Shown: positions 1 to 50,836, numbered from the stretch's first letter. The stretch: DNA of 52,738 nucleotides from an uncultured Gammaproteobacteria bacterium (GCA_964649615.1 CAZYPW010000005.1:41387-94124), one strand, 5' to 3'. Notes: a model not told the origin generated them from the sequence alone. Numbers and translations are program-made.

Positions 1-2110
1 AATCCAGGATGGAGGCAGAGGAGACATTTAAGGATGAACCTATTCCTACATTACCTGTTAAATCTGAGAATCCATTAACCCTTAGACCACCTTGGGCAAA
101 GCTTAACCCTGATACATTAAGGGAGGCCCCTATTCCTGTATTTCCAGCAAGGTTTGATATGCCAGATACATTTAAGGTTGACAGTGCTGCTGCTGAGGTG
201 ACAGTTAAGGATTGTCCTATCCCTACATTACCAGAGACATTTAAACTACTGCCTATTCCCACAAAATCAGAAAAGTATCCTGTACCATTAACTCTTAAGT
301 TATAATCAGGCAAGGTGGTTCCTATCCCTACATTACCATTTGAGTCTATCCTTAATCTGTCTGCTCCTCCTGTTGCAAAACTTAACAAATTATCTCCTGG
401 CCTGTAAATACCTGTGTCTGTATCATTGATGAAAGCCAGGGCTGGAGAAGAGGCTGATCCATCAGGCAAAAGAAGGGATGAGGTAGAGGTAGTTGATCCA
501 TCTACTGTTAAGGTTCCAGTAATCCTGGTATTACCCCAGACATCTAATTTATTAGAAGAGGTAGTAGCCCCCAGCCCTAAATTTCCTGCTGAGGTTACAA
601 AGAGCCCATTAGCACCTGAATTAATTTGTAGTTGAGTATCAGGAGAAGTAGTCCCAATTCCTACTCTGTTATTTGAGCTGTCTACAAACAAAGTATTGGT
701 ATCTATGGTGGTATCACCTGATACAGTTAAGGTGGAAGATAATGTGGTGGCACCAGTAATTCCCAGTGTTCCACCTATGGTAGCATTACTGGTAATATTT
801 CCAGTCCCTACTACATGAAGCTTAGTTGATGGGGAAATAGTTCCTAACCCCACATTACCAGATGCATCAATGGTAATGCCTTGTCCTGCAGTACCTCCAG
901 TGATTAAGGCTATGTTGTTTGCTCCAATTCGATATAGTCCGCTGTCAGTATCATCTGTAAAAGCTAACCCTGGAGCAGAAGCTGTACCATCTGAAATCAG
1001 CACTACTCCTGAAAAAGAAGGGGAGGATTTGGCAGAAAGAGTGATAGATCCTCCAAGTGAGACTGTGCCACCGCCTGTTAAATTAGTCCCTGCTGTAACG
1101 GTTACAGCAGAATTTGACAGAGCAGAGTTAGGGATATTAGTGAAGGTATTAGCACTTCCTGAGAGAGATTTATTAGTTAAGGTTTGGGTGGTATCAGTTC
1201 CAACCAGGGTGGTTGTTGCTCCTGGCAGGGTAAACTGAAACCCTCCAGATGTAATCTGAGCGTTGCTAGCAGACAAAGTTAAAGAAGAAAAAGTTGGAGA
1301 AGAAGTAGTTGATACATTTTGATCTAATGTAGCATTATTTGTTACTGTTAATGTGGTATCTCCAGAGGTAGCAATGATGTTTGAGGAGGAAGGAGTAGCT
1401 TCTAACTTCAAGTTATTTATTAACCCAGTTACAAAAAGTGAGCTATTTATTTGGGTATCAGTATTTACTTCTAAAAACTGAGAACTGGCTGTTTCAGCCA
1501 GGACATCTGAATCGTTTATCGTTAATTGTTTATCGTTAATCGGTAATGGGGGTGGGGGATCAGGTTTAAGATCAAGGGGGATGAAACCCAGCTCCTCTGC
1601 TTTCTTAGGACTAATTATCCCAATACTATCCTGAGCTAGTTTATCTAAAGGAGCAAGAAGAGCTGAAGCTATATTTCCCTTCATGAATTGTTTGGTAGTA
1701 TCAGGAGAAGTTAGGTAGGAAGCTACAATTCCTGCAACAGTTATTAAAACAAGAGAAGAGAAAACTCCTCCTGTTATGAGGAAATTAGTAAGAAAAGTTT
1801 TTTTGACGATAGATGGTAGAGGATTGATAGTGGATAGATCTTCTACTTCTATATTCCATTTTCTACCATCTATTGGCTGCTCTTCTGTTTTCTTTAATAG
1901 CTCCTCAGTAGTTTGGACTCTAGCTTGATGGTCTGCAACTGATTTTGGATTAATTGCACTTAGAGAATCTAGTGAATATAGCCTGGTACCACCTGGAGTT
2001 CTAATAGCAGTAATCTTGCCAGCTCTTTCCCATCTTCTTAAGGTATCAATGGAGACTTTAAGTATCTTGGAAGCTTGGCCTATTTTAACAAAATCAGACG
2101 GTTTTTGCAT
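1..2110 (-). CDS. Large membrane-anchored surface/tail-fibre-like repeat protein with N-terminal MerR/excisionase-type HTH; runs off the window (3' partial)
   Basis: Hand translation from ATG 2110 stays open to base 1: MQKPSDFVKIGQASKILKVSIDTLRRWERAGKITAIRTPGGTRLY (HTH), a hydrophobic segment, then many G-N-V-G-I-G repeats. Absent from the ORF track because its stop is outside the window. Confidence 0.85.
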   Translation of the reverse strand, partial: MQKPSDFVKIGQASKILKVSIDTLRRWERAGKITAIRTPGGTRLYSLDSLSAINPKSVADHQARVQTTEELLKKTEEQPIDGRKWNIEVEDLSTINPLPSIVKKTFLTNFLITGGVFSSLVLITVAGIVASYLTSPDTTKQFMKGNIASALLAPLDKLAQDSIGIISPKKAEELGFIPLDLKPDPPPPLPINDKQLTINDSDVLAETASSQFLEVNTDTQINSSLFVTGLINNLKLEATPSSSNIIATSGDTTLTVTNNATLDQNVSTTSSPTFSSLTLSASNAQITSGGFQFTLPGATTTLVGTDTTQTLTNKSLSGSANTFTNIPNSALSNSAVTVTAGTNLTGGGTVSLGGSITLSAKSSPSFSGVVLISDGTASAPGLAFTDDTDSGLYRIGANNIALITGGTAGQGITIDASGNVGLGTISPSTKLHVVGTGNITSNATIGGTLGITGATTLSSTLTVSGDTTIDTNTLFVDSSNNRVGIGTTSPDTQLQINSGANGLFVTSAGNLGLGATTSSNKLDVWGNTRITGTLTVDGSTTSTSSLLLPDGSASSPALAFINDTDTGIYRPGDNLLSFATGGADRLRIDSNGNVGIGTTLPDYNLRVNGTGYFSDFVGIGSSLNVSGNVGIGQSLTVTSAAALSTLNVSGISNLAGNTGIGASLNVSGLSFAQGGLRVNGFSDLTGNVGIGSSLNVSSASILD

Positions 2111-2214
2111 AGATTCTAAGGTGGGAGCCGTCTGTCCCCCTAAAATCTATGCAAATCTGCTTATTGTGCATAGATTCTTAATCCATCGTACATAGATCTG
2201 CATAGATTTGTCAA
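2104..2214 (-). promoter_or_regulatory. Sigma70-like promoter with repeated TGCATAGATT boxes
   Basis: Minus strand TTGACA (2209-2214), 18 bp, TACGAT (2185-2190); TGCATAGATT at 2106, 2167, 2199, variant at 2189, inverted copy 2144-2153. Confidence 0.6.
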
Positions 2215-2242
2215 GGGGTTATTATAATAGTAAAGGGAGAAT

Positions 2243-2332
2243 TTAAAGTTCAAAATTCAAAATGCAAAATGACAATTAAAAATTTAAAATTTTAAACTGC
2301 AACTTTTAACTTTTCATTTTACACTTTTAACT
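2243..2332. repeat. Heptamer-repeat palindrome after atpC
   Basis: ttaaagttcaaaattcaaaatgcaaaat ... aacttttaacttttcattttacacttttaac; overlaps the atpC stop. Confidence 0.8.
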
Positions 2333-2595
2333 TGTTCTTGGGGCTGAATATAAGTATAAATATCTACTTTATTTTGCTGGACATAGATGATGGCTACTGG
2401 AAATTTAAAGGTTAAAGCTTTTTGGCCTTTAATCCTGATAATAATTGGTTGGTTTTCAATCACAGTGATAAAATTGGCGTGTTCAGATAAGATATCAAAA
2501 GAACCCTGGGAGTTCTTGGAAGAAACCGAATCTGCATTTGTATCAAGAATGAGCTGTTGGGGAGAGATGATACGGACATGTAAGGTTTGATTCAT
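2314..2595 (-). CDS. atpC: F1 ATPase epsilon subunit (N-terminal domain only)
   Basis: LHVRIISP...VSSKNSQGSFDILSEHANFIT matches the epsilon beta-sandwich; last gene of the atp operon. Confidence 0.8.
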   Translation of the reverse strand: MNQTLHVRIISPQQLILDTNADSVSSKNSQGSFDILSEHANFITVIENQPIIIRIKGQKALTFKFPVAIIYVQQNKVDIYTYIQPQEQVKSVK

Positions 2596-2676
2596 AATTC
2601 AAAACTCAAAAATCAAAAGTCAAAAGTTCAAGTAAAAAGACTAAAAGTTTTTACTTTTTAACTTTTACCTTTTAAC
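2596..2676. repeat. Heptamer-repeat palindrome filling the atpD-atpC gap
   Basis: aattcaaaactcaaaaatcaaaagtcaaaag ... tttttactttttaacttttaccttttaac. Confidence 0.85.
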
Positions 2677-4109
<1,433 letters not shown>

Positions 4110-4949
4110 TTATTGCATCCCTCCTTTCCTGCTAGATAAAGATCCGGCATAATTTTCCAAAATTTGGTTATTAATTAAGCTTCTTTTTAAGTAAGCCTTA
4201 ATTTTTTGGGATTCTTTAATAAACTTATTAGCTTCTGTTTCTGCCTGATCCATGGAAATAAACCTGGAGGCAGTCCTGGAAACCTCAGATTCTAAAAAAG
4301 TTTCTTCCAAAAGCAGGGTTAGAATTTGATTATCAAAAAAATCTAATACTTTGCTAAGTTCTGGTTCAAAGATGAATTTAATTTTTTCTTCCTCTTTTGA
4401 GCTAGCTGGGATTTGAGCCACTTTAGCAATATCTGTATAGGTGGGATCTTGGATTAATAAGGTTCTCAGCTTAGAAAAAAAGATTAGCACTTGGTTGTAA
4501 TTTTTTAAACTGGCTACCAAAGCAGTTAGCTCAGAGGCATTAGGCTGGTCTTTGGCTAGAATAACTTCCTGAAGTGATCCAAAATCTTTACTTTTCCTAA
4601 AATAAGCTTGGGCTGTTTTGCCAATAATAATTCTATCTGTTTTAAGTTCTTTGGTTTTTTCAATGTAATAATCTATTAAATCAGAATTAATATCACCATA
4701 AAATCTATAATTAGAAGTGATAATGATGCTTAAGGTTTGGGTGGGTTTGGAGATGCTGATATTGCGCTTTAGGGCTAAAGCCCGAATCAAGCTAAAAACC
4801 TGGGAGATTTCTTGAAAAAACTCCCTGTTTCTTTCCAGGTTTACCCTTAAGAGTTTGATTTTTTGGTTGGCAATTTCAGAATAGGCCTGCGCTACCATTT
4901 TAAATGAATAACCCTCTTCAATTAATTGGTCAACTTCTTTAATAGTCAT
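4110..4949 (-). CDS. atpG: F1 ATPase gamma subunit (divergent)
   Basis: Position between alpha and beta; IITSNYRFYGDINS, FIFEPEL, SRTASRFISMDQAETEA motifs. Confidence 0.85.
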   Translation of the reverse strand: MTIKEVDQLIEEGYSFKMVAQAYSEIANQKIKLLRVNLERNREFFQEISQVFSLIRALALKRNISISKPTQTLSIIITSNYRFYGDINSDLIDYYIEKTKELKTDRIIIGKTAQAYFRKSKDFGSLQEVILAKDQPNASELTALVASLKNYNQVLIFFSKLRTLLIQDPTYTDIAKVAQIPASSKEEEKIKFIFEPELSKVLDFFDNQILTLLLEETFLESEVSRTASRFISMDQAETEANKFIKESQKIKAYLKRSLINNQILENYAGSLSSRKGGMQ

Positions 4950-4954
4950 TAATT

Positions 4955-5369
4955 AATCTCAAATCTGAGATCTTAAATGTCAAATCTACATCTAAAATCT
5001 CAAAACTTCTTCCTCCCTTTTAAAGTTAATACACTTGATCCTAACATATTGCTTATTTCGTTAGCCTCTAAGAGTAATTCCGCACATTCTGTTTTTAAAT
5101 TAGGATAAGAATCTCTCAATAGACAAATCCAATACTTAGTCTCATTAGCAGATTTTAAATCTATTTCATAAAATTTGATGAAATCTTTCCTGCTTGAAGC
5201 TGCTTGAGCTTCTATCATATTTGCTCCAATAGACCAGAAAGCCCTTTTATCAGGTAAATTATTCACAAAACTAATAATCTCTAAAGAAAATCTATAAGCA
5301 CGTAACTTTACATCATTAGATTTTAGATTTGAATTGTAGTTTTGCGTTTTGCGTTTTGAGTTTTGAGAT
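4955..5369 (-). mobile_element. Putative full mini-element: heptamer arms (4955-5008, 5321-5369) enclosing a four-helix-bundle gene
   Basis: Arms match the two halves of ORF-less palindromes at 43363-43465, 48829-48930 and 30366-30474; mobility is inferred. Confidence 0.6.
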
Positions 5370-5374
5370 ATCAT
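5000..5374 (-). CDS. Four helix bundle protein (TIGR02436 / 23S rRNA IVP family), probably internally deleted
   Basis: SIGANMIEAQAASSRKDFIKFYEIDLKSANETKYW family motif; ATG 5374 overlaps the atpA stop (ATGA). Confidence 0.85.
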   Translation of the reverse strand: MISQNSKRKTQNYNSNLKSNDVKLRAYRFSLEIISFVNNLPDKRAFWSIGANMIEAQAASSRKDFIKFYEIDLKSANETKYWICLLRDSYPNLKTECAELLLEANEISNMLGSSVLTLKGRKKF

Positions 5375-6822
5375 GGGCATAATTTGGCCAAGACTGGCTT
5401 GACTCCTTCTAACATTTTAATTAGTTCATCATCAGTATCAACTTTACTGTAAGTTTTAGCAATCTCTATTAGTTGAGGTTCCTCCAAAAAGGCCTTAACT
5501 AGAACTTTTTTGTATTTTTCCATAAACTCTTTGCTTTTATCCTGGAAAAAGGTGGTGAAAGGAAGCGCTAAAAGGGCTACTTGGATGCCTTTGGGGATGG
5601 GGGTGAAGGGTTCTTGTTTTAACACTTCCAAGATCAAATCTCTTCTTTTTAAAATCAGTTGGGTTTCAGGAGATAATTCTGAGGAAAATCTGGCAATGGT
5701 CTCTAAATCTGCTGCAGCAGACAAAACCTGCCTCACTCTTGTTGAGAGCAAATTTGAAACCTGCTCCTGAGTTTGCCTTCCCACCCTGGAAACAGAGAGT
5801 GAAATATCAATAGCTGGGGTTTGGCCTTGGGATCTCATAGAGGCTTTAAACAACAGATGGCCATCTGTCATAGACATGAGATTGGTGGGAATAAAGGTGG
5901 TAAAATCATTTAAATTTAATTCAATCGCAGGCAGGGCAGTGATTGAACCTCCACCAAAAGCTTTTAAAAAATTCCCTGCCCTCTCCAAGAGATGTGCATG
6001 CTGGTAAAAGATGTCTCCAGGGTAAGATTCCCTTCCCGGGGCCTTATTACCAAGCAGGGCAATTTCCCTATAAATTTTAGCATGGGCTCCTAAATCATCT
6101 AAAATCAAAAGGACATCATGGCCTTTTTTTTGAAAATATTCAGCTACTGAAAAAGCTGTTTTAGGAGTTAAAAAAATTAAAGGAGCAGGTTCAGAAGAGG
6201 AGGTAGCTATCACAATAGTGTAATATAGGGCTCCATTAGCAGCCAGCACATCTATTAAATTTCTCACACTCACTGCTGGCTTGCCTATTGAAGCATATAT
6301 ACAAACCACTCCAGTCCCTTTTTGATTAATGATAATGTCAATTAGAAACTGAGTTTTACCAGAGTGGGCATCTCCCATAATCAGCTCCCTTTGCCCCAAT
6401 CCTATGGGAATAATGGTATCAATTACAGTAATGCCAGTTAAAAATTGCTCATGAATATATTCTCTGCTTTCAATTCCAGGCGCACTTCTTTCCAGCTCTA
6501 AAATCTGGACATTTTTGGAGTTGGTTAAAGGTCCTTTGCCATCAATTGGCAGCCCTAGTGGATTAATGCTTCTGGTCAATAGAAATTCACCAACTGGAAT
6601 GCCCAGGCGGTTAGGCAGTCTTTTAAAGGTTTGGCCTGGTTCAATTTTAGCCTCATCAAGCATTAAAACCTCAATAGAAGTTTCAGATAGGGAATTAACC
6701 CAGCCCCGAGCCCCATTATCTGCCTCAACCATGTCGTTAATGCGTACAGTAGGCAGCCCATCTACATGGACCAGGAAATCCCGGACAGATACAGCAAAAC
6801 CAACTTCTTGCCCATTATTCAT
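5371..6822 (-). CDS. atpA: F1 ATPase alpha subunit
   Basis: GQRELIMGDAHSGKT, PGRESYPGDIFYQHAHLLERA, ISLSVSRVG. Confidence 0.95.
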   Translation of the reverse strand: MNNGQEVGFAVSVRDFLVHVDGLPTVRINDMVEADNGARGWVNSLSETSIEVLMLDEAKIEPGQTFKRLPNRLGIPVGEFLLTRSINPLGLPIDGKGPLTNSKNVQILELERSAPGIESREYIHEQFLTGITVIDTIIPIGLGQRELIMGDAHSGKTQFLIDIIINQKGTGVVCIYASIGKPAVSVRNLIDVLAANGALYYTIVIATSSSEPAPLIFLTPKTAFSVAEYFQKKGHDVLLILDDLGAHAKIYREIALLGNKAPGRESYPGDIFYQHAHLLERAGNFLKAFGGGSITALPAIELNLNDFTTFIPTNLMSMTDGHLLFKASMRSQGQTPAIDISLSVSRVGRQTQEQVSNLLSTRVRQVLSAAADLETIARFSSELSPETQLILKRRDLILEVLKQEPFTPIPKGIQVALLALPFTTFFQDKSKEFMEKYKKVLVKAFLEEPQLIEIAKTYSKVDTDDELIKMLEGVKPVLAKLCP

Positions 6823-6823
6823 A

Positions 6824-7300
6824 CTATCTTAAAAATTTCTTAAAGCTTTGCAAGATAACTTCTTTTCTCTCTTCAATTCTGGCCTTCAAGGAGTAATCCT
6901 TATAAACTCCATTCCAAACTAGGGAACATCCAGCTATTAACTTTAAGTCAAATTTTAAATCAATCAATTTGAAGGAGTTAAAGTTTTTTCTATAATACTC
7001 TCCAAGCTCAGTAATTAGTTCATCAGGGGGATTGAAGGCTAAATTTAAGGCCAAAGTAGGAGTTTGTTTTAGTTTAGATTCTAAAAAGGAAAATGTTTCC
7101 TCAAGGTTTGCAGGGGTAAATTGTTGAAAAAAAGTTTCAGGCAGCAGTTTCAGCCACTTTAAATCCTCAGCAGTTGGTTCAATTAAAATAGCCCCCCCAT
7201 AAAATTTTTGGGCAAAGTTGCTCTTTAAAATTCTCAATCTGTGTTTAAATTGAAAAACAGTATAAGTTTTTCCCAATATAGCCTCAAATATTTGATCCAT
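6824..7300 (-). CDS. atpH: ATP synthase delta-like subunit
   Basis: C-terminal DLKLIAGCSLVWNGVYKDYSL resembles the delta/OSCP motif; sits before atpA. Confidence 0.7.
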   Translation of the reverse strand: MDQIFEAILGKTYTVFQFKHRLRILKSNFAQKFYGGAILIEPTAEDLKWLKLLPETFFQQFTPANLEETFSFLESKLKQTPTLALNLAFNPPDELITELGEYYRKNFNSFKLIDLKFDLKLIAGCSLVWNGVYKDYSLKARIEERKEVILQSFKKFLR

Positions 7301-7303
7301 AAT

Positions 7304-7990
7304 TTAACTTAAGAATTTCTCACCCTTGGCTTTTTCTAAGGCCTCATAAATGAGATCAAGCTGGTCTTTTAAAGAGAGTTTTTTACCCAAAACCACACTC
7401 AAAGTTTGTTCCATAATTGCTAAAATATTTTCATCAACAGCTTTAAGCTGGGCATTTTTATAATTCTCTAATAGTTCTTTGGCAGCCTTAATTTCCAGAT
7501 CAATAGAAGAAAGGGTTTTTTGTTCAGTGGAGACTAAAAAATCAGATAATCTTTCTTCCATCCTGCCAAAGATTTGGTTAATTCTGGCTTTAGTTTCTTC
7601 CTGGGAAAATTTTTCCAGCTCTTGAGCCTGCCTTTGGAGCTGCTGGATAAAGGCTAATAAACTATTTTGAGCTTCACTAACAGAAATTTGGGATTGTTTA
7701 GCTATCTCATCTAATCTTTTTTTATATTCACCTTCTAATTTAGCAGTTTCAACTTTAGTATCAGCTACCACTTTTACTCCCTCAAGTTCAGCCTGGCCTA
7801 AAATATCCTGGGATTTTTTATAAGACTGTTGTAAAGCCTCCAATCCTTTTTCCCTGAATTGGCCAATGATTTTCTGGCCTTCTTTTTCTAATGATTGCCT
7901 CCTGTTATATTCCCTAAGGTAGAGGAAAATCCCTGCCAGGGTGGTGATAGATAGTATTATGGTGGGTAAACTAATGGGCAGTTCGGGCAT
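7304..7990 (-). CDS. atpF: ATP synthase b-like subunit (one TM helix plus coiled coil)
   Basis: Single N-terminal TM, long charged coiled coil, operon position; low sequence-level certainty. Confidence 0.55.
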   Translation of the reverse strand: MPELPISLPTIILSITTLAGIFLYLREYNRRQSLEKEGQKIIGQFREKGLEALQQSYKKSQDILGQAELEGVKVVADTKVETAKLEGEYKKRLDEIAKQSQISVSEAQNSLLAFIQQLQRQAQELEKFSQEETKARINQIFGRMEERLSDFLVSTEQKTLSSIDLEIKAAKELLENYKNAQLKAVDENILAIMEQTLSVVLGKKLSLKDQLDLIYEALEKAKGEKFLS

Positions 7991-8004
7991 GATTTGATAA
8001 TAGC

Positions 8005-8077
8005 AAGTTTAAAGTGTAAAATGCAAAGTGTAAAATAACAAGGTAAATATTAAAAATTTTGATTTTTGATTTTTGAT

Positions 8078-8080
<3 letters not shown>
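8005..8080. repeat. Heptamer-repeat palindrome upstream of atpF
   Basis: aagtttaaagtgtaaaatgcaaagtgtaaaat ... aattttgatttttgatttttgattt. Confidence 0.8.
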
Positions 8081-8950
<870 letters not shown>

Positions 8951-9016
8951 CTACTTTTATATCAATAGCTCAAAATATATAAAAGCTCATCAATATAATT
9001 ACCGCAGGAGCTTAAG

Positions 9017-9050
9017 TTAGGGGTATAGGGTATAGGGTTAGGATTTAGGC
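9017..9050. repeat. Heptamer tandem repeat (TAGGGTA)
   Basis: gttagggtatagggtatagggttaggatttagg. Confidence 0.65.
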
Positions 9051-9129
9051 TGGATCAGAATATATATTAAGTATATCAATTATAACTAAGATGAATTTCA
9101 ATTAGCTTGTGAAAAGAAGGTGTGAAACG

Positions 9130-9232
9130 GTATTAGGTAGTATATATTAAGTATTATGGGAAGATAAGATTTAAACCTTTTAGACGAAGTCGCAAGCTTC
9201 GCTTAATACCTAATACTTGATACTTAATACTT
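9130..9232. repeat. Heptamer palindrome (AGTATTA/TAATACT) enclosing a 42-bp dispersed repeat
   Basis: gtattagg..attaagtatta ... taatacctaatacttgatacttaatact; 9168-9209 matches 26625-26666 at 40/42. Confidence 0.75.
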
Positions 9233-9278
9233 GTTCAGTAGATTGAACGAGCTCGTATCTTATGCTAAGATCGAAGTT

Positions 9279-11819
9279 ATGAAGAAGTATATACCTAACC
9301 AAATTGAGCCTAAATGGCAGAAAAAGTGGAGAGAAGGTGCTCTCTATTTAACCAATTTATCCAAAAATGATAATAAATATTATGTTTTAGTTGAGCTGCC
9401 TTATACTTCGGGGGATCTTCATATGGGGCACTGGTTTACCTTCACCATGGGTGATATCTTGGCTAGATTCAAAAAAAGACAGGGGTTCAATGTGCTTTTC
9501 CCGATCGGATTTGATGCATTTGGCTTGCCAGCAGAGAATGCTGCAATTAAGCAAAACATTCATCCAAGAGACTGGACTTATGGCAATATTGAGCGTATGA
9601 GAACTCAATTTGAAACTTTAGGAGCCTCGATGGATTGGACTAAAACCATGGTGGCTTGTGATCCTAAATACTACAAATGGAATCAATGGATCTTCTTAAA
9701 GATGCTAGAGCAGGGTAGCACTTATAGAGGTAGAGCGCTATCAAACTGGTGTCCTAACTGCCAGACAGTACTGGCCAATGAGAATGTAGAATTAGGCAGA
9801 TGCTGGAGGTGCGGCACAGAGGTAATTACCAAAGAAATAGAACAGTGGTTTTTTAAGATCACAGACTATGCCGAAAAATTACTTTGGCCAGAATCACCAA
9901 AAGTAGATTGGCCCAAGCATTTAAGAGAAGGTCAAAATAATTGGATAGGTAAGTCAGAAGGTGTAATTTATCGTTTCAAAGTAAAAGATATGAATATTTA
10001 CTTTGAAATGTTTGATTCTGTGCCCCAAACATTTATGGCTCAAACGTTTACAGTTATTGCTCCTGAACATCCTAAACTCTACGAGTTAGTAAAAGGCACT
10101 AAATACGAGAAAAAAGTGATGAATTTTGTCGACAAGATCAGAAGAAAGAAAGCTGCTGATAAATTTGAAGCCGATAAGGAAGTGGAAGGCGTATTTACCG
10201 GTAGGTATATAGAATATACTCCAACAGGACAGAATATTCCTTTGTGGGTAGCGTCGTTCGTTATAGCCGAATATGGTACAGGAGTTGTTAATTCCAGTGC
10301 ACACGACGAGCGTGATTTTGCCTTTGCCAAAAAGTATGACTTGCCACTGCATCCGGTTATGTTTCCGTCTGATCCAGTTGAGGCCAAGAAGGTCAGAAAT
10401 TTGGAATATTGTTACCATCATGCACCAGATGGTATCTTGCAAGAACCGGCAGAATTTAAAGGTAGAAAATGGGCAGGAGTAAGAGCAGACATTATTGATT
10501 ATATTGAAAAAAAAGGCTTTGGCAAAAGGGCCATCCAGTATCATCTTCACGATTGGTCAATCTCTAGACAAAGATATTGGGGGACACCCATTCCCATTAT
10601 TTATTGTGATAAGTGTGGGACAGTACCTGTGCCGGAAAAAGATTTACCAGTGGAGCTGCCTTATAAGGTTGACTATGCTCCCCAAGGTAAGCCCCCTCTG
10701 GCTACGGCAGAGGATTGGGTGAATGTAGAGTGCCCTAAGTGTGGTGGGCCAGCCAAAAGAGAAGTGGAAACTATGGATACTTTTGTTGATTCAGCCTGGT
10801 ACTTCTTTAGGTATTTAGATCCTGAAAATGATCAACAGATCTTTGATAAAAAGGTAGTAAAAGATTGGATGCCACTAGAGATCTATATTGGGGGGCCGGA
10901 ACATACCTTGGGACATGCCTTGTATTCCAGATTCTTTACCATGATCTTTCATGATTTAGGACTGATTAATTTTGATGAGTATGCTAAAAAGAGGATACAC
11001 CACGGTACAATTTTAGGTCCTGATGGCTCTAGAATGAGCAAGTCCAGAGGGAATGTGGTTAATCCTGATGAGGAGGTTAAAAATTATGGGGCAGATGCTA
11101 TCAGAGTTTATCTGATGTTTTTAGGCCCTTTTGACATTGTTACTTCTTGGAACCCCAATGGTGTCAATGGTGCCTATCATTTCCTACAACGTGTTTGGTC
11201 TCTCCGTGACAAATTACTTCCGATTGGACGTGGGCTCATCGCCCAAGAAAGTAGTTTGTCACAAGCTGACCTGAAAATGATACACAAGACTATTAAGAAG
11301 GTGACAGAAGATATTGAGGGACTTAAATACAACACAGCTATTGCCTCCCTCATGGAGTGGTTGAATCATTTATCTAAAAAAGAATCTATCAGTAAAGAAG
11401 AATATAAAACATTTTTATTACTACTTGCCCCATTCTCGCCCCATATTACAGAGGAACTGTGGGAAATTGTTAATCGTGAATCGTCTATCGTATATCGGAA
11501 AAATAAAAACGATAAGCAAAGCTTGCGATCTAACGATCTAAAACGACAAACGATAAACGACAAACGAAATTGGTCTATACATAAGCAGTTGTGGCCACAG
11601 TTTGATAAAAAATATCTGGAAGAAGAGGAGATAGTTATCATAGTTCAGATTAATGGTAAGGTGAGAGACAGCATCATGATACAAAAAGATATAATAAATA
11701 ACAAAGAGGATATAGAAAAATTTGCCAAACAAGCTGCAAATGCTAAGAAGTACTTAGCAGGAAAAACTGTGAAAAAAGTTGTGTATGTAGAAGGTAAGGT
11801 AATAAATTTTGTTATTTAG
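9279..11819 (+). CDS. leuS: Leucine--tRNA ligase
   Basis: HMGH and RMSKS motifs, zinc knuckles, editing-domain HDERD; ATG 9279 preferred. Confidence 0.97.
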   Translation: MKKYIPNQIEPKWQKKWREGALYLTNLSKNDNKYYVLVELPYTSGDLHMGHWFTFTMGDILARFKKRQGFNVLFPIGFDAFGLPAENAAIKQNIHPRDWTYGNIERMRTQFETLGASMDWTKTMVACDPKYYKWNQWIFLKMLEQGSTYRGRALSNWCPNCQTVLANENVELGRCWRCGTEVITKEIEQWFFKITDYAEKLLWPESPKVDWPKHLREGQNNWIGKSEGVIYRFKVKDMNIYFEMFDSVPQTFMAQTFTVIAPEHPKLYELVKGTKYEKKVMNFVDKIRRKKAADKFEADKEVEGVFTGRYIEYTPTGQNIPLWVASFVIAEYGTGVVNSSAHDERDFAFAKKYDLPLHPVMFPSDPVEAKKVRNLEYCYHHAPDGILQEPAEFKGRKWAGVRADIIDYIEKKGFGKRAIQYHLHDWSISRQRYWGTPIPIIYCDKCGTVPVPEKDLPVELPYKVDYAPQGKPPLATAEDWVNVECPKCGGPAKREVETMDTFVDSAWYFFRYLDPENDQQIFDKKVVKDWMPLEIYIGGPEHTLGHALYSRFFTMIFHDLGLINFDEYAKKRIHHGTILGPDGSRMSKSRGNVVNPDEEVKNYGADAIRVYLMFLGPFDIVTSWNPNGVNGAYHFLQRVWSLRDKLLPIGRGLIAQESSLSQADLKMIHKTIKKVTEDIEGLKYNTAIASLMEWLNHLSKKESISKEEYKTFLLLLAPFSPHITEELWEIVNRESSIVYRKNKNDKQSLRSNDLKRQTINDKRNWSIHKQLWPQFDKKYLEEEEIVIIVQINGKVRDSIMIQKDIINNKEDIEKFAKQAANAKKYLAGKTVKKVVYVEGKVINFVI
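11471..11568. repeat. In-frame heptamer palindrome inside leuS
   Basis: taatcgtgaatcgtctatcgtatatcgg ... aaacgacaaacgataaacgacaaacga. Confidence 0.85.
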
Positions 11820-11870
11820 CAGCGATCTATTTTGTCTGCTAAAGATTAATCATTGTTGATTTAGATTGTT

Positions 11871-12305
11871 ATGACAAGTAAATCAAAAGCTGCCCTAAAT
11901 AGAGACAATTCCTGGCTTTTAGCAAGGTTAGATTTTATTTGGACAAAATATTTTACTGAGGTTCCCCAAACAAATAAAGTCTTTATTAAATTTGGCAGAA
12001 ATGCCAGGTTAAGGCTTGGTTCAATTCGCTTAGATAGAAAAACTAAAGCCAGCTATATACTGATAACTTCAATGTTTAAAGAGCAATCAATCCCACAAGA
12101 GGTAGTGGATCACACCATTGGCCATGAGTTGGTGCATTATGCTCATGGTTTCTCTTCCAACAGGCCCAGATTGCACAAATATCCACACTCAGGAGGAGTA
12201 GTTAAAAAGGAGATGGCAGAGCGGGGAATGGAATATCTATATAAAGCTTATAAGGCTTGGATAAAAGACTATCGAAAAATGCTAAAAAAGTCATATGGAT
12301 TTTGA
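11871..12305 (+). CDS. SprT-like/zincin HExxH protein
   Basis: TIGHELVHYAHG motif. Confidence 0.65.
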   Translation: MTSKSKAALNRDNSWLLARLDFIWTKYFTEVPQTNKVFIKFGRNARLRLGSIRLDRKTKASYILITSMFKEQSIPQEVVDHTIGHELVHYAHGFSSNRPRLHKYPHSGGVVKKEMAERGMEYLYKAYKAWIKDYRKMLKKSYGF

Positions 12306-12954: not shown

Positions 12955-13467
12955 ATGAAGGCTTATAAAAAGAGTTTAGCTCAATTTGTCCTAATTGTTT
13001 TAGAAAAGAGTATTGATGGCTACGTTAGAGTAGAAGATTTTGCCCAGCATCATTATCGCTATTTTTATGGGGCTCCGGAATTGAAAAAATCAAGTCTGGC
13101 TGCTGCTATTGCTCGTCTAAGAGAAGGAGGTTTAGTGGAAACTAAGCGTAAGAGGTCGGATATTTTAGTAAAGTTAACCAAGCTAGGTAAAGAATCACTC
13201 AATGATTTTAATTTAGATGATCAACCCTGGGATGGTAAATGGAGGATCGTGATATTTGATATTCCTGAAACTCAAAGAACAGTGAGAGATTTGTTTAGAA
13301 GAAGACTCAAAGACTGGGATTTTAAAAATTTTCAACAAAGCGTTTGGATTACCAAAAAAAATGTTACAGAAAAGATGAGGAAACTCATTAATAAGTTGGG
13401 AATATATGATTGGGTAGCTGTAATTGAGTCGGAAGATAAAGCTTTATCCAATATCTACAATCTTTAA
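12955..13467 (+). CDS. PaaX-like regulator (wHTH plus Cas2-like C-terminal domain)
   Basis: WDGKWRIVIFDIPE...FQQSVW motif. Confidence 0.8.
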   Translation: MKAYKKSLAQFVLIVLEKSIDGYVRVEDFAQHHYRYFYGAPELKKSSLAAAIARLREGGLVETKRKRSDILVKLTKLGKESLNDFNLDDQPWDGKWRIVIFDIPETQRTVRDLFRRRLKDWDFKNFQQSVWITKKNVTEKMRKLINKLGIYDWVAVIESEDKALSNIYNL

Positions 13468-14466: not shown

Positions 14467-14580
14467 TTTTAAATTTTCAATTTTAAATTCACAATGAATT
14501 TTCAATGATTCAATGTTTGAAAATTAATACATTGATATTTGATTGTAAATTGTAAATTGTAAATTGGTAATTGTAAATTT
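14465..14580. repeat. Heptamer palindrome between comEC and argS
   Basis: aattttcaattttaaattcacaatgaattttcaat ... attgtaaattgtaaattgtaaattggtaattgtaaatt. Confidence 0.8.
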
Positions 14581-14596
14581 ATGTTATTATTAACTT

Positions 14597-20593: not shown

Positions 20594-20665
20594 TCGGGGT
20601 GCTGGGAATTGAACCCAGTATCTCTGCGACCCGAACGCAGCGTGATACCGATTCACTACACCCCG
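20592..20665 (-). tRNA. tRNA-Pro(CGG)
   Basis: CGGGGTG acceptor, CTGCG-TT-CGG-GT-CGCAG anticodon arm, TTCAATT T-loop. Confidence 0.92.
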
Positions 20666-20710: not shown

Positions 20711-20911
20711 GCCGTTGTAGCTCACCGGATAAGCGGAGCTTGCAAAATTGGCCCTGTAGCTCAGTGGATAGAGCAATCCCGTCCTAAGGGAGAGGTCGTG
20801 AGTTCGACTCTCGCCAGGGCCGCCAATTTTGTAGAGCAACCCGTCCTTCTCCGCCAAAGGCGGAGGGTGTGTTAGGGGTAGGTTGGAGGTTCGATTCCTC
20901 TCAACGGCGCC
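20711..20911 (+). other. Interrupted outer tRNA-like gene (probably Arg-derived) enclosing tRNA-Arg(CCT)
   Basis: GCCGTTG (20711) pairs with CAACGGC (20902); canonical T-arm GGAGG-TTCGATT-CCTCT; the D-loop and anticodon loop both carry insertions. Confidence 0.65.
20750..20825 (+). tRNA. tRNA-Arg(CCT)
   Basis: GGCCCTG/CAGGGCC stem, GGATA D-loop, CCT anticodon, TTCGACT T-loop, encoded CCA. Confidence 0.9.
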
Positions 20912-22870: not shown

Positions 22871-22953
22871 GTTAAAAGTTTAAAGTGCAAAGTGTAAAGT
22901 TAGTGTTGTTTTCTTTCAGAAAACTTTTAATTTTTAACTTTGAATTTTGAACT
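22871..22953. repeat. Heptamer palindrome before mreB
   Basis: gttaaaagtttaaagtgcaaagtgtaaagtt ... aacttttaatttttaactttgaattttgaac. Confidence 0.8.
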
Positions 22954-24095: not shown

Positions 24096-25316
24096 ATGGT
24101 GATTGGTTTTGATGGATCAAGGGCTTTTATTTCTCAAAAAACAGGCACAGAAAATTATTCCTATCAGCTTTTAAAAGCATTAGCCAAAATTGATAAAGCT
24201 AATCGGTATTTTGTTTACACCAGGCCTTTCATTAGTAGGCCGATCGACCAACTAATGAAATTGCCTAAGAATTTTAAGGTGGTTGAAATTAGGTGGCCAA
24301 GATTTTGGACACAGGGAGGTTTAGCAGTCCAGACCTTCAAGGATAATTTGGATGTTTTGTTTGTTCCTTCACATACTTTGCCTATAATCAGAAGACCGGG
24401 ATTGAAAACTGTTATAACAGTGCATGATTTAGGGTCAGAGTATTTACCCTCCATGCATCAGTTAAAGCAAAGGTTATATTTGGGTTTTATGCAAAAATAT
24501 CAGCTTAATTCAGCCACAAAAATAATTGCTGTATCACAAGCTACCAAACTAGATCTAGTTAAGAGAATTGGGATAGATCCTGGGAAGATAAAAGTGGTGT
24601 ACGAAGGATACGATCAAGGCAATTTCAAAAATCAAAACTCAAAAGTCAAAATTGATGCACAAAGTAGTATTTTGAAATACTATGAACTAATAACTAATAA
24701 CTATTTTCTTTTTGTGGGGACAGTACAGCCAAGGAAGAACCTCGAGCGCGTGATTTCAGCATTTAGTAGGTTTATAGCCCAATCTAAAACTCGAAATGGA
24801 GATAGTATAGAGTATAAAGTATCGAGTATAGAGGGTAAAAAACAGAAAAAAGCAAAACCCCACTATACTCTATACACTATACCTTATACTTTAGTGATTG
24901 CGGGTTCAAAGGGTTGGCTTTCTAATGATATCTACAAACTGCCAAAGAAGTTGGGGATTGAAGATAGGGTGAAGTTTTTAGGGTATGTGCCTGAGAAAGA
25001 TTTACCTGCACTTTACAGTGGAGCCCAAGCTTTAGTTTTCCCCTCTCTTTTTGAAGGATTTGGGTTGCCTATACTTGAGGCTCAAGCCTGTGGATGCCCA
25101 GTGGTTACCTCAAATGTGTCAAGCATGCCTGAAGTAGCTGGAAAAGGGGCAATATATGTGGATCCCTACAGCGTAGATGATATAGTAGATGGTATGGAAA
25201 GGGTAAAGGGTAAAGCGGAAAGGGTAAAGTTAATAAAGGCAGGATATGAGAATATAAAAAGATTTAGTTGGGAAAAGTGTGCAGCTCAAACACTAAAAGT
25301 GTTTGAAGAATTATGA
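24096..25316 (+). CDS. GT4 family glycosyltransferase with repeat-derived inserts
   Basis: GTVQPRKN, EGFGLPILEA. Confidence 0.92.
   Translation: MVIGFDGSRAFISQKTGTENYSYQLLKALAKIDKANRYFVYTRPFISRPIDQLMKLPKNFKVVEIRWPRFWTQGGLAVQTFKDNLDVLFVPSHTLPIIRRPGLKTVITVHDLGSEYLPSMHQLKQRLYLGFMQKYQLNSATKIIAVSQATKLDLVKRIGIDPGKIKVVYEGYDQGNFKNQNSKVKIDAQSSILKYYELITNNYFLFVGTVQPRKNLERVISAFSRFIAQSKTRNGDSIEYKVSSIEGKKQKKAKPHYTLYTIPYTLVIAGSKGWLSNDIYKLPKKLGIEDRVKFLGYVPEKDLPALYSGAQALVFPSLFEGFGLPILEAQACGCPVVTSNVSSMPEVAGKGAIYVDPYSVDDIVDGMERVKGKAERVKLIKAGYENIKRFSWEKCAAQTLKVFEEL
24802..24890. repeat. In-frame heptamer palindrome (TAGAGTA/TATACTC) in the GT4 gene
   Basis: Near-identical to 25725-25804. Confidence 0.9.
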
Positions 25317-26059
25317 AAAAAGAAATTTTAGGAGTTAAAATTGATGATCTTTCAATACCTGAAATTGTCAGTATAGTAGAAGGTTGGTTAAAAAAGGAAG
25401 GTAAGCATTATATTGTTACTCCGAATCCGGAAATTGTGATGATGGCGCAAAAAGATTTGGAGTTAAAAAAGATCTTAAATAATACAGACTTAAGTATTCC
25501 TGATGGAGTGGGTTTAAAATTAGCAAGTGATATAGAAAATATTAGTCCTGGAGTAGATGTTTTGGAGGCCTTAGTAAAATTAGCAGCTGATTTGGGCGCC
25601 ACAGTAGGCTTTTTAGGTGGCAGAGTTGGGGTAGCAGAAAAAGCAGTAGAGCGCTTATTAAAAAAGCATCCAAATTTAAAAGTAACTTTTGCAGGGTCTG
25701 GAGGAGAGGTGGATGAGGAAGGGAATAGTATAGAGTATAGAGTATCAAGTATAAAGGGTAACAAACAAAAAAATAAATCCCACTATACTCTATACACTAT
25801 ACCTGCTACCGATTTACTTTTCGTGGCCTTTGGCCCACCTAAGCAGGAAAAATGGATAGCAAAAAACTTAAAGGAAATAGATGTTAAAGTAGCTATGGGG
25901 GTGGGAGGAGCTTTTGATTACCTATCTGGCAGAGTTAAGCGAGCTCCTAAGCTAATAAGAAGCTTAGGGTTGGAGTGGTTGTTTAGGCTAATCATTCAAC
26001 CATGGAGAATAAAAAGGCAAATAGCTCTTCTTAAATATCTTTATCTTGTGATACACTGA
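25313..26059 (+). CDS. WecB/TagA/CpsF family glycosyltransferase
   Basis: TPNPE, PDGVG, GPPKQE, GVGGAFD, RAPK..LGLEWLFRL. Confidence 0.92.
   Translation: MKKEILGVKIDDLSIPEIVSIVEGWLKKEGKHYIVTPNPEIVMMAQKDLELKKILNNTDLSIPDGVGLKLASDIENISPGVDVLEALVKLAADLGATVGFLGGRVGVAEKAVERLLKKHPNLKVTFAGSGGEVDEEGNSIEYRVSSIKGNKQKNKSHYTLYTIPATDLLFVAFGPPKQEKWIAKNLKEIDVKVAMGVGGAFDYLSGRVKRAPKLIRSLGLEWLFRLIIQPWRIKRQIALLKYLYLVIH
25725..25804. repeat. In-frame heptamer palindrome in the WecB/TagA gene
   Basis: Last 26 nt identical to 24859-24884. Confidence 0.9.
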
Positions 26060-30360: not shown

Positions 30361-30365
30361 AGTTT

Positions 30366-30474
30366 AAACTCAAAACGCAAATCGCAAAACTCAAATCTAC
30401 ATCTTAAAACTCAAAACTTTTAAAGATTTAAGATTTTATTTTTAGTTTTGACATTTGACATTTGACATTTGAGT
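30366..30474. repeat. Empty copy of the four-helix-bundle-flanking palindrome
   Basis: caaatctacatcttaaaactcaaaactttt ... agttttgacatttgacatttgacatttgagtt. Confidence 0.85.
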
Positions 30475-30476
30475 TA

Positions 30477-31004
30477 TTATTCACCTCCTTTACTTATTCT
30501 AATTTGATTTAATGCATAGACTAAGTTCCTTAAGTTACCATTTAATACAGAGACCATTCCTTGTAAAGGAGCAACCAAGACGCCCACTGTTTTAGCTCTT
30601 AGTTCATCTTTAGTAGGTAAGGTAGAAAGTTGGATAATTTTGGCTTCATCTAAGGCAATCTCACCCAGGAATCCTGATTTAACTTTGCCAATTGCAGCAT
30701 CTTTAAGTGCTTTAACCAAAATTTTAATAGGGGAGATTTCATCATCATATGCAAAAAGAGTAGCAGTAGGCCCTTCAAGACTGGAAGGTGGAAGATGGAA
30801 GGTGGAAGATGGAACAGCCAGTTTAAGCAGAGTGTTTTTGGTGATGATAAACTGGGCATTTTGTTCTCTTAGCTTCTTTCTTAAATCAGAAAGTTGGGCC
30901 ATGTTTAGACCTTTGTAGTCTGTAAAAACTACAGCAGTAGATTTGCCTAGTTTTTCTTGTATTATTTTTACTAATTCTTCTTTTTGTTGTCTTGTTTTAG
31001 CCAT
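30477..31004 (-). CDS. rplJ: 50S ribosomal protein L10
   Basis: AVVFTDYKGL, KNTLLKLA, LPTKDELRAK; heptamer insert at 30783-30813. Confidence 0.95.
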   Translation of the reverse strand: MAKTRQQKEELVKIIQEKLGKSTAVVFTDYKGLNMAQLSDLRKKLREQNAQFIITKNTLLKLAVPSSTFHLPPSSLEGPTATLFAYDDEISPIKILVKALKDAAIGKVKSGFLGEIALDEAKIIQLSTLPTKDELRAKTVGVLVAPLQGMVSVLNGNLRNLVYALNQIRISKGGE

Positions 31005-43353: not shown

Positions 43354-43362
43354 AATATAAAT

Positions 43363-43465
43363 AATCTCAAATCTGAGATCTTAAATCGCAAATCTACATC
43401 TTAAATCTCAAAACTTTTAAGATTTGAGTTGTAGTTTTGACATTTGACATTTGAGTTTTGAGATT
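43363..43465. repeat. Empty copy of the four-helix-bundle-flanking palindrome
   Basis: 43363-43416 matches 4955-5008 at 51/54; the remainder resembles 5321-5369. Confidence 0.9.
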
Positions 43466-43468
43466 CCT

Positions 43469-48823: not shown

Positions 48824-48828
48824 AATTT

Positions 48829-48930
48829 AATCTCAAAACTCAAATCGCAAAACGCAAATCTGAATCTTAAATCTTAAAAACTTTTTAGATTTGAATTGTA
48901 GTTTTGACATATGGCATTTAAGTTTTGAGT
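48829..48930. repeat. Empty copy of the four-helix-bundle-flanking palindrome
   Basis: 48883-48906 is identical to 5321-5344 (24 nt). Confidence 0.9.
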
Positions 48931-50326: not shown

Positions 50327-50836
50327 ATGATTAGAAAAAAGACAATTGGAAAGTTTGTTCTTTTTGCTTTGGAAAAAGCAATTGATGGGGTTGTTATATT
50401 TGATGACCTAATACATCATCCTAACTGGTATGCTTATGGTGGAGGCTGGGAATACCCTTTAAAGAAATCAGCGCTCTCACAAGCCTTAAAGAGACTAAGA
50501 GAAAAAGGTTATATTGAAAAATCAAACAACAAAGATATTGATAAGATCATCTATAAATTAACAGATCAAGGAAGAGAGCTTATTTTACTTGGAAAGGATG
50601 AAGATGAGATTGAGTGGGATGGTAAATGGAGAATTGTCATATTCGATATTCCTGAAAATAAAAAAGTAGTCAGGGAAGTTTTAAGGGGTAGACTTAAACT
50701 GTGGGGATTCCAGCTTTGGCAGAAGTCTGTTTGGGCATCAAAAAAGAATTTAACCAATAAGCTTAGGGGGTTAATTAAAGAGCTGGGGATAGAGGATTGG
50801 GTATTAGTAATTGAATCTGAGAATGCGGGGCGTTGA
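50327..50836 (+). CDS. PaaX-like regulator, second copy
   Basis: WDGKWRIVIFDIPE...WQKSVW; ATG 50327 fits the promoter. Confidence 0.8.
   Translation: MIRKKTIGKFVLFALEKAIDGVVIFDDLIHHPNWYAYGGGWEYPLKKSALSQALKRLREKGYIEKSNNKDIDKIIYKLTDQGRELILLGKDEDEIEWDGKWRIVIFDIPENKKVVREVLRGRLKLWGFQLWQKSVWASKKNLTNKLRGLIKELGIEDWVLVIESENAGR

Follow-up and report, generated by a model that had tools for sequence, protein, structure and literature searches.

Small four-helix-bundle proteins of the S23p family (Pfam PF05635) are, to our knowledge, among the commonest unexplained small proteins in genome annotation, and Avd is the only understood member that we know of. In the 23S rRNA genes of Leptospira and Coxiella burnetii, S23p open reading frames (ORFs) are carried by intervening sequences (IVSs), where the ORF lies within a stem of terminal inverted repeats that is cut by RNase III (PMC4990558). 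The Coxiella IVS has a 28-bp stem and two to three GACAGAT heptamers just 5' of the ATG, in a number that varies between strains; it is cut at the first repeat, and its ORF has suffered a deletion in some strains (PMC4990558). PF05635 ORFs also occur in insertions of the 16S and 23S genes of the Candidate Phyla Radiation (CPR) (PMC11270868). Here we describe a PF05635 gene with inverted heptamer arms that lies on the minus strand between atpA and atpG, in a 52,738-nt stretch of DNA catalogued under an uncultured Gammaproteobacteria bacterium (GCA_964649615.1, CAZYPW010000005.1:41387-94124). The whole of this stretch is referred to as the window; it comes from a CPR-like bacterium and contains no rRNA gene.

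The preliminary description of this locus had suggested an undescribed mobile or RNA-processing system. As to the kind of element this did not wholly stand, since the architecture is that of a 23S IVS (PMC4990558); what is new is the setting in an mRNA operon, together with the gene-less derivatives. The element, called the cassette below, shares with 23S IVSs the protein family, the position of the ORF within terminal inverted repeats, a sporadic distribution, ORF decay and sense insertion into a highly transcribed unit, and in Coxiella the 5' arm also has tandem heptamers, just before the ATG. It differs in its site, which is the stop/start junction of a protein-coding operon and not the tip of an rRNA helix, and CPR cassettes have a translated 5' arm and ORF-less copies at other operon junctions. 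Furthermore, RNase III excision has been demonstrated for IVSs, whereas in an mRNA such a cut would separate cistrons and not leave a working fragmented rRNA.

Another comparison is with the repetitive extragenic palindromes (REP/REPIN) and their associated transposase genes (RAYT), together named REPtrons, which were reportedly described by Nunvar in 2010, by Bertels and Rainey in 2011 and by Ton-Hoang in 2012. RAYT is a Y1 HUH transposase with known chemistry, and a REP is a fixed repeat of 20-35 nt. As in a REPtron, inverted copies of a palindromic repeat stand on either side of one gene, the repeat also being scattered between other genes without it, and several families of repeat can share one genome, every family with a gene variant of its own. 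In contrast to a REPtron, the cassette encodes a small helical bundle without known catalytic motif, and its repeats are tandem heptamers. Identity with RAYT was rejected, as searches of Pfam and NCBIfam give PF05635 and TIGR02436 only and no Y1 HUH (IS200-like) transposase.

MITEs (miniature inverted-repeat transposable elements) that lie in operons and are processed as RNA hairpins, namely Neisseria Correia/nemis and Yersinia ERIC, are said to have been described by De Gregorio et al. in 2002-2005. These too are short inverted-repeat elements, co-transcribed with operons and found as full and empty sites between relatives, and RNase III acts on their stems, with an effect on how stable the adjacent cistrons are. 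The cassette has terminal inverted repeats and full and empty sites, as a MITE does. Unlike a MITE, it has no target-site duplication of fixed length, and its arms have a period-7 structure. No transposase-encoding element with the same ends was found that could serve as a MITE parent; such ends enclose no ORF but that of the four-helix bundle.

Bacterial tandem heptamers have been on record for decades, their origin and function remaining unexplained, and were reported in 2007 to be over-represented among long simple repeats; the short tandemly repeated repetitive (STRR) heptamers of cyanobacteria have been known since 1990. Heptamers of unexplained origin include GGGAATC in Xanthomonas and GGGGA(T/C)T in Nostoc, many in convergent pairs, with 70-75 pairs per Xanthomonas genome (PMC4692102), and TAACTGA, which is abundant between genes in Beggiatoaceae, some cyanobacteria and Bacteroidetes (PMC4679880). 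As cited in these two papers, Mrazek (2007) found that in many bacteria no long simple repeats are commoner than heptanucleotides, and proposed slippage as their source. Like the arms of the cassette, the STRR, GGGAATC, GGGGA(T/C)T and TAACTGA repeats are intergenic, lie often just before start codons and between operon genes, often form convergent inverted pairs and vary in length among close relatives. Neither PMC4692102 nor PMC4679880 links heptamers to a protein, and neither mentions S23.

PF05635 is also the family matched by Avd proteins (PMC10053308), and Avd (PDB 4DWL, 8UB7) has the fold of this family. Every one of the five Avd protomers takes part when the pentamer holds an 11-bp RNA stem-loop, and RNA further downstream pairs with the 3' end of avd (10.1101/2023.10.23.563531). 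In contrast to the diversity-generating retroelements (DGRs) of Avd, the cassette has no reverse transcriptase and no template/variable repeat pair, and DGRs have no described heptamer arms. In a partial coverage of the literature, which leaves room for an earlier mention, no paper was found that ties S23p or four-helix-bundle genes to heptamer arrays or to insertions in protein-coding operons, or that reports gene-less copies; the wider link between PF05635 and heptamers thus appears unreported.

A cassette inserted in the atp operon

An AtpA-based scan of metagenomes yielded 80 atp operons for comparison at their junctions. In the closest relative found (L085, AtpA 87% identical), the atpA TGA overlaps the atpG ATG, with no spacer, no hairpin and no gene. 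About two thirds of the relatives (~25 of 38) read ..TGCCCATGACTATT.. at this junction, as L085 does. The window reads TGCCCATGA, then an element of 423 nt, and then ATGACTATT, the sequence with which atpG begins and which in the relatives directly overlaps the atpA stop. The preliminary description had set the gene at the apex of a palindromic element. This palindrome was not there beforehand: because the empty site of the relatives has no hairpin, arms and gene arrived together as one unit. The cassette was inserted as a whole, in the sense orientation, at the overlap of the atpA stop and the atpG start. Apart from this correction, and that concerning the kind of element, the earlier observation is confirmed and its interpretation supported: it could have failed on two points, and on both it held, as other family members do carry such arms and the closest and most other relatives lack the cassette at this site.

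The cassette is fitted closely between its neighbours, all of which are on the minus strand. The TGA of atpA (F1 alpha, 5371-6822) lies at 5373-5371 and overlaps the cassette ATG (5374-5372) as ATGA. The four-helix-bundle ORF (5000-5380) codes for 124 aa from this ATG, where the protein-database gene call begins, and for 126 aa from a second in-frame ATG upstream, at 5380. The 5' arm (5316-5374) consists of about seven heptamers (TCAAAAC, TCAAAAC, GCAAAAC, GCAAAAC, TACAATT, CAAATCT, AAAATCT), with a period-7 tract at 5333-5374; it contains the start ATG and codes for the first ~20 residues. It is followed by the core of ~307 bp (5009-5315), which codes for helices 1-4 and is absent from gene-less copies. 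The 3' arm (4950-5008) holds the TGA stop (5002-5000) and ends 1 nt short of the ATG (4949) of atpG (F1 gamma, 4110-4949). The N-terminus and the stop codon therefore lie inside the arms and the ATG overlaps the atpA stop, as had been reported.

No ribosome-binding site of the cassette itself was found, nor any promoter signal of note. A promoter-like TTGATA-16-TAAAAT (10/12) lies in the 3' end of atpA (5441-5414, minus strand), ~35-60 nt before the cassette ATG; promoter-like matches barely exceed chance, with 32 found against 22.4 expected in shuffles. Terminator-like sites (a G+C-rich stem and then a T run) are present at none of the palindromes within 2000-9500, and an Rfam search of the window returned two tRNAs only, with no known RNA family at the element.

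Gain and loss of such elements at operon junctions is patchy. Across three atp junctions in ~35 relatives, 60-65% are tight (<=20 nt) and the rest hold period-7 hairpins of 45-200 nt, patchily distributed and of varied sequence; heptamer hairpins occupy 30-40% of the atp junctions. In one lineage (L106) a different four-helix-bundle sub-family, with TTATAAA-type heptamers, occupies the same atpA-atpG junction, and in another (L113) a remnant at the atpH-atpA junction has kept both arms and lost ~50 core codons. The operon was colonised independently in both lineages, and the L113 remnant is an intermediate between the full and the gene-less forms.

Solo palindromes of differing units also occur at the atpA-atpG junction in L090/L091 (2075-2161), L092 (5950-6079), L099/L100 (5953-6038) and L109 (1510-1653). 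They share an end module, TTGGAGG(C)(A/G)AAGC(C)GAC, which comprises a Shine-Dalgarno-like GGAGG and a mini-hairpin just before the atpG ATG and is absent from the window's own solo copies. It is as if these palindromes brought a ribosome-binding site for the downstream gene.

The position inside the operon, with apparent translational coupling to atpA, might point to a lineage-specific accessory subunit or regulator of ATP synthase. We give this practically no credence, as the site is empty in nearly all relatives, homologues lie in unrelated operons and the window copy has lost its family motif to a deletion.

The ORF scores 53.7 bits against PF05635 (cut-off 33.8) and 63.1 bits against TIGR02436 (cut-off 24), and a profile built from its homologues matches PDB 2RLD (E 3e-22). 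The cargo is an S23p/Avd-family protein and not a transposase, in agreement with the preliminary description, and no transposase or reverse transcriptase lies nearby. The deletion is in-frame and takes out 11 aa; its junction (5225-5239, minus strand) falls between two SIG-coding repeats and reads FWSIG|ANM where homologues have FWSIGDQLLRSATSIGANM. Among 26 aligned homologues the window copy alone lacks GDQLLRSATSI, a stretch that includes five near-invariant residues (D, Q, L, R and T) from the motif of the family. The conserved PF05635 motif is GxxRxxxSxxxNxxE (PMC3936711); it is present in 25 of 25 aligned homologues and incomplete in the window copy, where R and the first S are gone and ..SIGANMIE is left. 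In an AlphaFold model (pLDDT 71.6), three helices (1, 3 and 4) stand out clearly; at the deletion, helix 2 gives way to two 4-residue turns. Since the deletion removes conserved motif residues and breaks helix 2, the window copy is probably non-functional. With its degenerate arms, it looks like a decaying member of its family.

The best fold matches of this model are 2RLD (TM 0.65-0.73) and 2GSC, S23-family structures that were deposited with five chains, the window protein having been modelled as a monomer. There is also some structural similarity, though weak, to the Avd chain of 8UB7 which, given that Avd proteins match this same family (PMC10053308), could suggest an Avd component or a remnant of a DGR. 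This is extremely improbable: no reverse transcriptase is found beside the window gene or its homologues, the window has no template/variable repeat pair, and ten mid-size ORFs in it are housekeeping genes. Transposases were likewise not seen near the CPR copies, whose neighbours are genes for ATP synthase, pilins and the type II secretion system. A 91-nt direct repeat (13228-13318 and 50615-50705, 76% identical) does occur in two window ORFs that both encode WDGKWRIVIFDIPE; it looks like paralogous coding sequence and not like a DGR template/variable pair. Affiliation with defence systems or phages was rejected after PADLOC and PHROGs searches without matches and two weak matches only among phage genomes.

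Arms and gene across the family

More than 1,200 relatives of the window protein were found at 60-78% identity (131-137 aa), almost all in Patescibacteria/CPR assemblies. In three CPR contigs the gene lies in unrelated operons (pilins, type II secretion system, unknown genes), with a shared 5' arm that reads ATG-ATATCTCAAAAC... and a shared 3' arm after the stop. A further 80 loci from species-representative genomes were compared, which gives ~85 homologous CPR elements in all; universal rRNA motifs are adjacent to none of the 80. The gene-plus-heptamer-arm design is general: arms are present in the ~85 CPR homologues and in most of 14 loci from other phyla. Many of the contigs with close homologues (L006, L007, L009 and others) are labelled 'uncultured Gammaproteobacteria' or 'Candidatus Saccharibacteria' (TPA assemblies). 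These labels look unreliable, as gene content and the nearest named relatives of the protein point to Patescibacteria.

The 5' and 3' arms of nearly every gene in the 80 CPR loci pair with each other (dG -30 to -80 kcal/mol, z mostly -3 to -18). An S23p ORF within stem-forming inverted repeats, as in an IVS, is thus found across the family and is weak in the window copy. The heptamer unit varies by locus (TCAAATC, TCAAAAC, GCAAAGC, GTAAAAA and others), and both arms stay complementary. Cognate arms pair more strongly than non-cognate ones (-38.5 vs -32.2, p=4e-7). As the heptamer register makes an RNAalifold alignment arbitrary, covariation was assessed at a non-periodic anchor in the middle of the arms, where the compensatory change from CTACA/TGTAG to CCACA/TGTGG gives counts of 11/0/2/10 (p=7e-5), counts that include shared ancestry, uncorrected. 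RNA-strand-specific pairing, sought as an asymmetry of G-U versus A-C, was rejected, none being found in full elements.

Selection acts differently on the two parts of the gene. In the core, third codon positions are free and first and second positions are held across homologues, which shows purifying selection on the protein. In the N-terminus that is encoded by the arm, all three positions are held, which places the constraint there on the nucleotides.

In the window copy itself, the arms are ~71% complementary (37/52, ungapped). On the mRNA strand their duplex is not significant (dG -27.5, z -1.4, with 19 of 200 shuffles equally good) and on the opposite strand it is (dG -39.0, z -3.5). When the whole element is folded as RNA, the outermost 8 bp are the sole long-range pairs that remain. 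The palindrome is clear across the family and degenerate in this copy. One Patescibacteria contig (L038) carries three four-helix-bundle genes within 12 kb (6001-6402, 6934-7338 and 11507-11926); their arms are very strong in one element (dG -57, z -11.6) and weak in two.

Outside CPR, a search of plasmid proteins placed the family chiefly among cyanobacteria, Nostoc included, and 14 loci were examined. Heptamer arrays, mostly inverted, flank the gene in ~12 of these, in Cyanobacteriota (Dolichospermum, four Nostoc, Planktothrix, Gloeocapsa, Anabaena and Pseudanabaena), Chloroflexota (Chlorohelix), Bacteroidota (Bernardetia and Chondrinema) and Spirochaetota. Nostoc-type and TAACTGA-like heptamers are among those that directly flank PF05635 genes here. 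Some arrays are perfect: in one example four CAATTCG units precede the gene and four AATTGCG units follow it, and in another CGTAATT x4 stands on the near side and AATTACG x4 beyond the gene. The ORF does not extend into the arms in these phyla, and the genes again occupy operon junctions (helicase-methylase, hsdS-hsdR, RND adaptor-permease and cas genes), the last in agreement with an earlier report that placed members of the family among cas genes (PMC3936711). In the full set of loci, the ends of four-helix-bundle genes show a 19-fold enrichment in period-7 tracts over other positions, and no other period is enriched.

Some of these loci have features of their own. The element with perfect CAATTCG/AATTGCG arms on a plasmid of Nostoc sp. 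ATCC 53789 (L166, 1303-2199) lies between a 231-nt coding sequence (CDS) annotated as DNA cytosine methyltransferase and a 279-nt hypothetical CDS, so that a methyltransferase gene may have been interrupted by it. Helicase-related and DNA methylase ORFs flank the gene in L165, L167 and L168. In a Chondrinema litorale plasmid (L177, 3830-4445) the flanking heptamers AACTGTA, TAACTGA and TCACTGA are of the TAACTGA type.

Heptamers before a gene might also be read as the switch of a phase-variable contingency gene, whose expression would change with the gain or loss of units and whose arms would have no structural role. Seven is not a multiple of 3, the tract lies inside the ORF in the CPR sub-family, and Coxiella strains differ in the number of heptamers upstream of S23p. 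However, the units are imperfect in most CPR copies, homologues differ in length by 2-4 codons and not by multiples of 7 nt, and neither the inverted array after the stop codon nor the gene-less copies would be explained; we regard this as very improbable.

Gene-less palindromes at other junctions

The left arm of the window element (4955-5008) is identical to 43363-43416 at 51 of 54 positions in a direct comparison, and 5321-5344 of the right arm is an exact 24-mer match of 48883-48906. Both matches had been noticed before and were reproduced. Searches with the arm patterns, allowing <=3 and <=2 mismatches, gave matches at the named sites only, with 0 expected from 100 dinucleotide shuffles. 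A repeat finder grouped the left arm (4950-5008) with 43358-43416 (93%), 30361-30419 (76%) and 48824-48882 (73%), and the right arm (5315-5370) with 43410-43465, 48877-48932 and 30421-30476 (77-89%). At all three places outside the atp operon the left arm directly adjoins the right arm and the core is absent, which bears out the claim of empty elements at 43363, 48829 and 30366. The full/empty relationship holds, and the internally deleted L113 remnant fits between the two forms.

Each of these solo copies lies on the minus strand and exactly fills a junction between co-directional genes: 43358-43467 that of nusG and rplK, 30363-30476 that of rplJ and rplL, and 48826-48932 that of a GH1 glycosidase and an EamA transporter. 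The first of these (dG -35.6/-28.3) is closest to the full element of the window, ranking 1 of 88 in a comparison of arms, and its 5' arm still translates to the N-terminal peptide. Whether the solo copies arose recently from the window gene copy was tested: only 43358 ranks first, and the other two are equally near to the elements of other species. As a group, the three are 80-88% identical to other species' elements against 76-89% to the window's own, which indicates that the arm consensus is conserved across species. Recent local copying in the window is therefore only weakly shown by these sequences. In three other genomes (L022, L046 and L081), solo copies share genome-specific unit variants, ATG included, with the local gene-bearing element; arm variants are also shared by 43358 and the full element of the window.

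In all, about ten intergenic gaps between co-directional genes of the window carry heptamer palindromes. They were found by folding each gap, as a strict palindrome finder with mismatch penalties gave only the copy at 43363; among periodicities at lags 4-12, lag 7 alone yields tracts. Three belong to the arm family of the window gene, and the remainder match the arms of four-helix-bundle elements in other genomes. One at the atpD-atpC junction (2596-2676, minus strand) has GTTAAAA/GTAAAAA-type units and best matches the arms of an element in another genome (L042). Another, at the atpG-atpD junction (4051-4109, minus strand), folds on the transcribed strand only (dG -13.9 vs 0). On the plus strand, a TTGTAAA-type palindrome lies between co-directional genes at 14467-14596 and an AAAGTGT-type one upstream of mreB at 22871-22946. 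The three matching palindromes are ORF-less derivatives of the same element family and the others are ORF-less relatives of other sub-families; gene-less copies in general are best read as deletion derivatives of the full element. Solo copies tend to lie with the A-rich arm first on the host sense strand (29 vs 9, p=0.0017), and there is a weak trend for them to be more stable on that strand (34 of 57, p=0.09).

It is quite improbable that these hairpins are ordinary operon punctuation, stabilising or attenuating mRNA, that arose in place by polymerase slippage with no element involved. Arguing for slippage are the commonness of heptanucleotides among long simple repeats, for which it was proposed (Mrazek 2007, as cited in PMC4679880 and PMC4692102), and the sequence differences that hairpins at a single atp junction show from lineage to lineage. 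It would not account for the 51/54 identity, non-periodic stretches included, between loci 38 kb apart, nor for the 83-91% identity of arms from elements of different species that lie among unrelated genes. Moreover, L085 has no hairpin or gene at the site, solo copies keep an N-terminal coding remnant, including the ATG, and no terminator-like signature was found.

Period-7 tracts were also seen within called ORFs of the window, at 24802-24850 and 25725-25773, 30780-30817 and 46948-46985. The first two form a 49-nt repeat pair of AGTATAG-type units, 90% identical, in two adjacent ORFs of a glycosyltransferase region; one tract is in rplJ (GGAAGGT/GGAAGAT units) and another in a 790-aa ORF (AAAGTGA units). 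Elsewhere the window has two divergent tRNA genes (20594-20665, minus strand, and 20750-20822, plus strand), one of which overlaps a 74-aa ORF from simple gene picking.

Possible function and wider meaning

Taken as a whole, the locus is probably an IVS-type cassette of the S23p/Avd family with inverted heptamer arms, inserted as a unit in an mRNA operon and leaving ORF-less derivatives elsewhere. Translation of the ORF would be coupled to that of atpA, which is probable because the cassette ATG overlaps the atpA stop. The arms would pair, as RNA and/or single-stranded DNA, closing off the insert and bringing the two host cistrons together again. By analogy with 23S IVSs, the stem could be an RNase III site. 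Because the Avd pentamer holds an 11-bp RNA stem-loop, and the avd end pairs downstream, a pentameric cassette protein may bind the stem-loops of its own arms and those of the solo copies. It is tempting to speculate that a strand folds back and one arm then serves as template for the other, as suggested by the genes that have perfect matched arrays on both sides.

The main rival explanation makes the arms the mobile or functional unit, similar to REPs or MITEs and moved by an unlinked enzyme (RAYT/IS200-type or another recombinase), with the ORF as a passenger that has an unrelated cellular role. In the window, solo copies far outnumber gene copies (~10 palindromes to 1 gene), the four-helix-bundle protein has no known nuclease or recombinase motif, and arm pairing without RNA-strand preference fits a DNA hairpin substrate. 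Nevertheless, gene and arms are associated in at least six phyla despite unrelated heptamers, and repeated chance capture is hard to credit; in two 8.3-kb Nostoc loci the tracts that flank the gene are the sole period-7 tracts. No transposase lies near the CPR copies, and no general target-site duplication was found. We consider a passenger gene unlikely.

Several observations weigh against the IVS-type cassette as set out here. Firstly, protein-hairpin binding and RNase III cutting are carried over from Avd and 23S IVSs by analogy. Secondly, across the family the arms pair equally well on the antisense and the sense strand (-39.9 vs -38.5). With the window copy significant on the antisense strand only, this lack of strand asymmetry leaves selection for an mRNA structure unsupported and makes upkeep at the DNA level possible. 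Thirdly, gene-bearing copies do show an orientation bias in favour of the cassette, with co-directional genes on both sides in 68 of 83 cases where the baseline of these loci is 70% (p=0.008), but it is modest and confounded with replication direction. The element encodes no mobility enzyme. ATGA/ATGT flanks the four closest elements, that of the window included; as a general feature, however, target-site duplication was rejected, since the base after the two ATGs matches in 34% of 77 elements, which is chance. Not all arms conform: in Treponema saccharophilum (L170, 1393-1950) CCGCTCT-type heptamers stand on both sides in direct and not inverted orientation, in L106 a direct copy is followed by an inverted copy after the gene, and in Monoglobus (L175) there are no clear heptamers. 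To these are added the uncorrected ancestry in the covariation counts and the crude gene calls of the compared loci, which are simple ORF picks.

A broader reading, which we put forward tentatively, is that PF05635 proteins are the dedicated partners of heptamer-repeat elements, in a relationship like that of REPs and RAYTs with no recognisable transposase. A hairpin-binding pentamer would recognise, maintain or spread the 7-nt arrays. This might proceed through synthesis, templated or by slippage, along a strand folded back on itself, and would keep both arms complementary. In that case rRNA IVSs, STRRs, GGGAATC, TAACTGA and the CPR palindromes might be products of one mechanism.

The physical link between gene and heptamers, with its covarying arms, gene-less copies and empty orthologous sites, offers a testable handle on two puzzles, the S23p proteins and the tandem heptamers. 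It also means that IVS-type elements are not restricted to rRNA: in the streamlined genomes of CPR bacteria they colonise essential operons, such as those for ATP synthase and ribosomal proteins, at the points where one gene stops and the next starts. Insertion there must have consequences for how the mRNA is processed, for translational coupling or for subunit stoichiometry. In genome annotation, many odd palindromes between genes find their explanation here, as do the low-complexity N-termini of four-helix-bundle proteins, and the design of the element may account for heptamer repeats that have long been a puzzle in bacteria.

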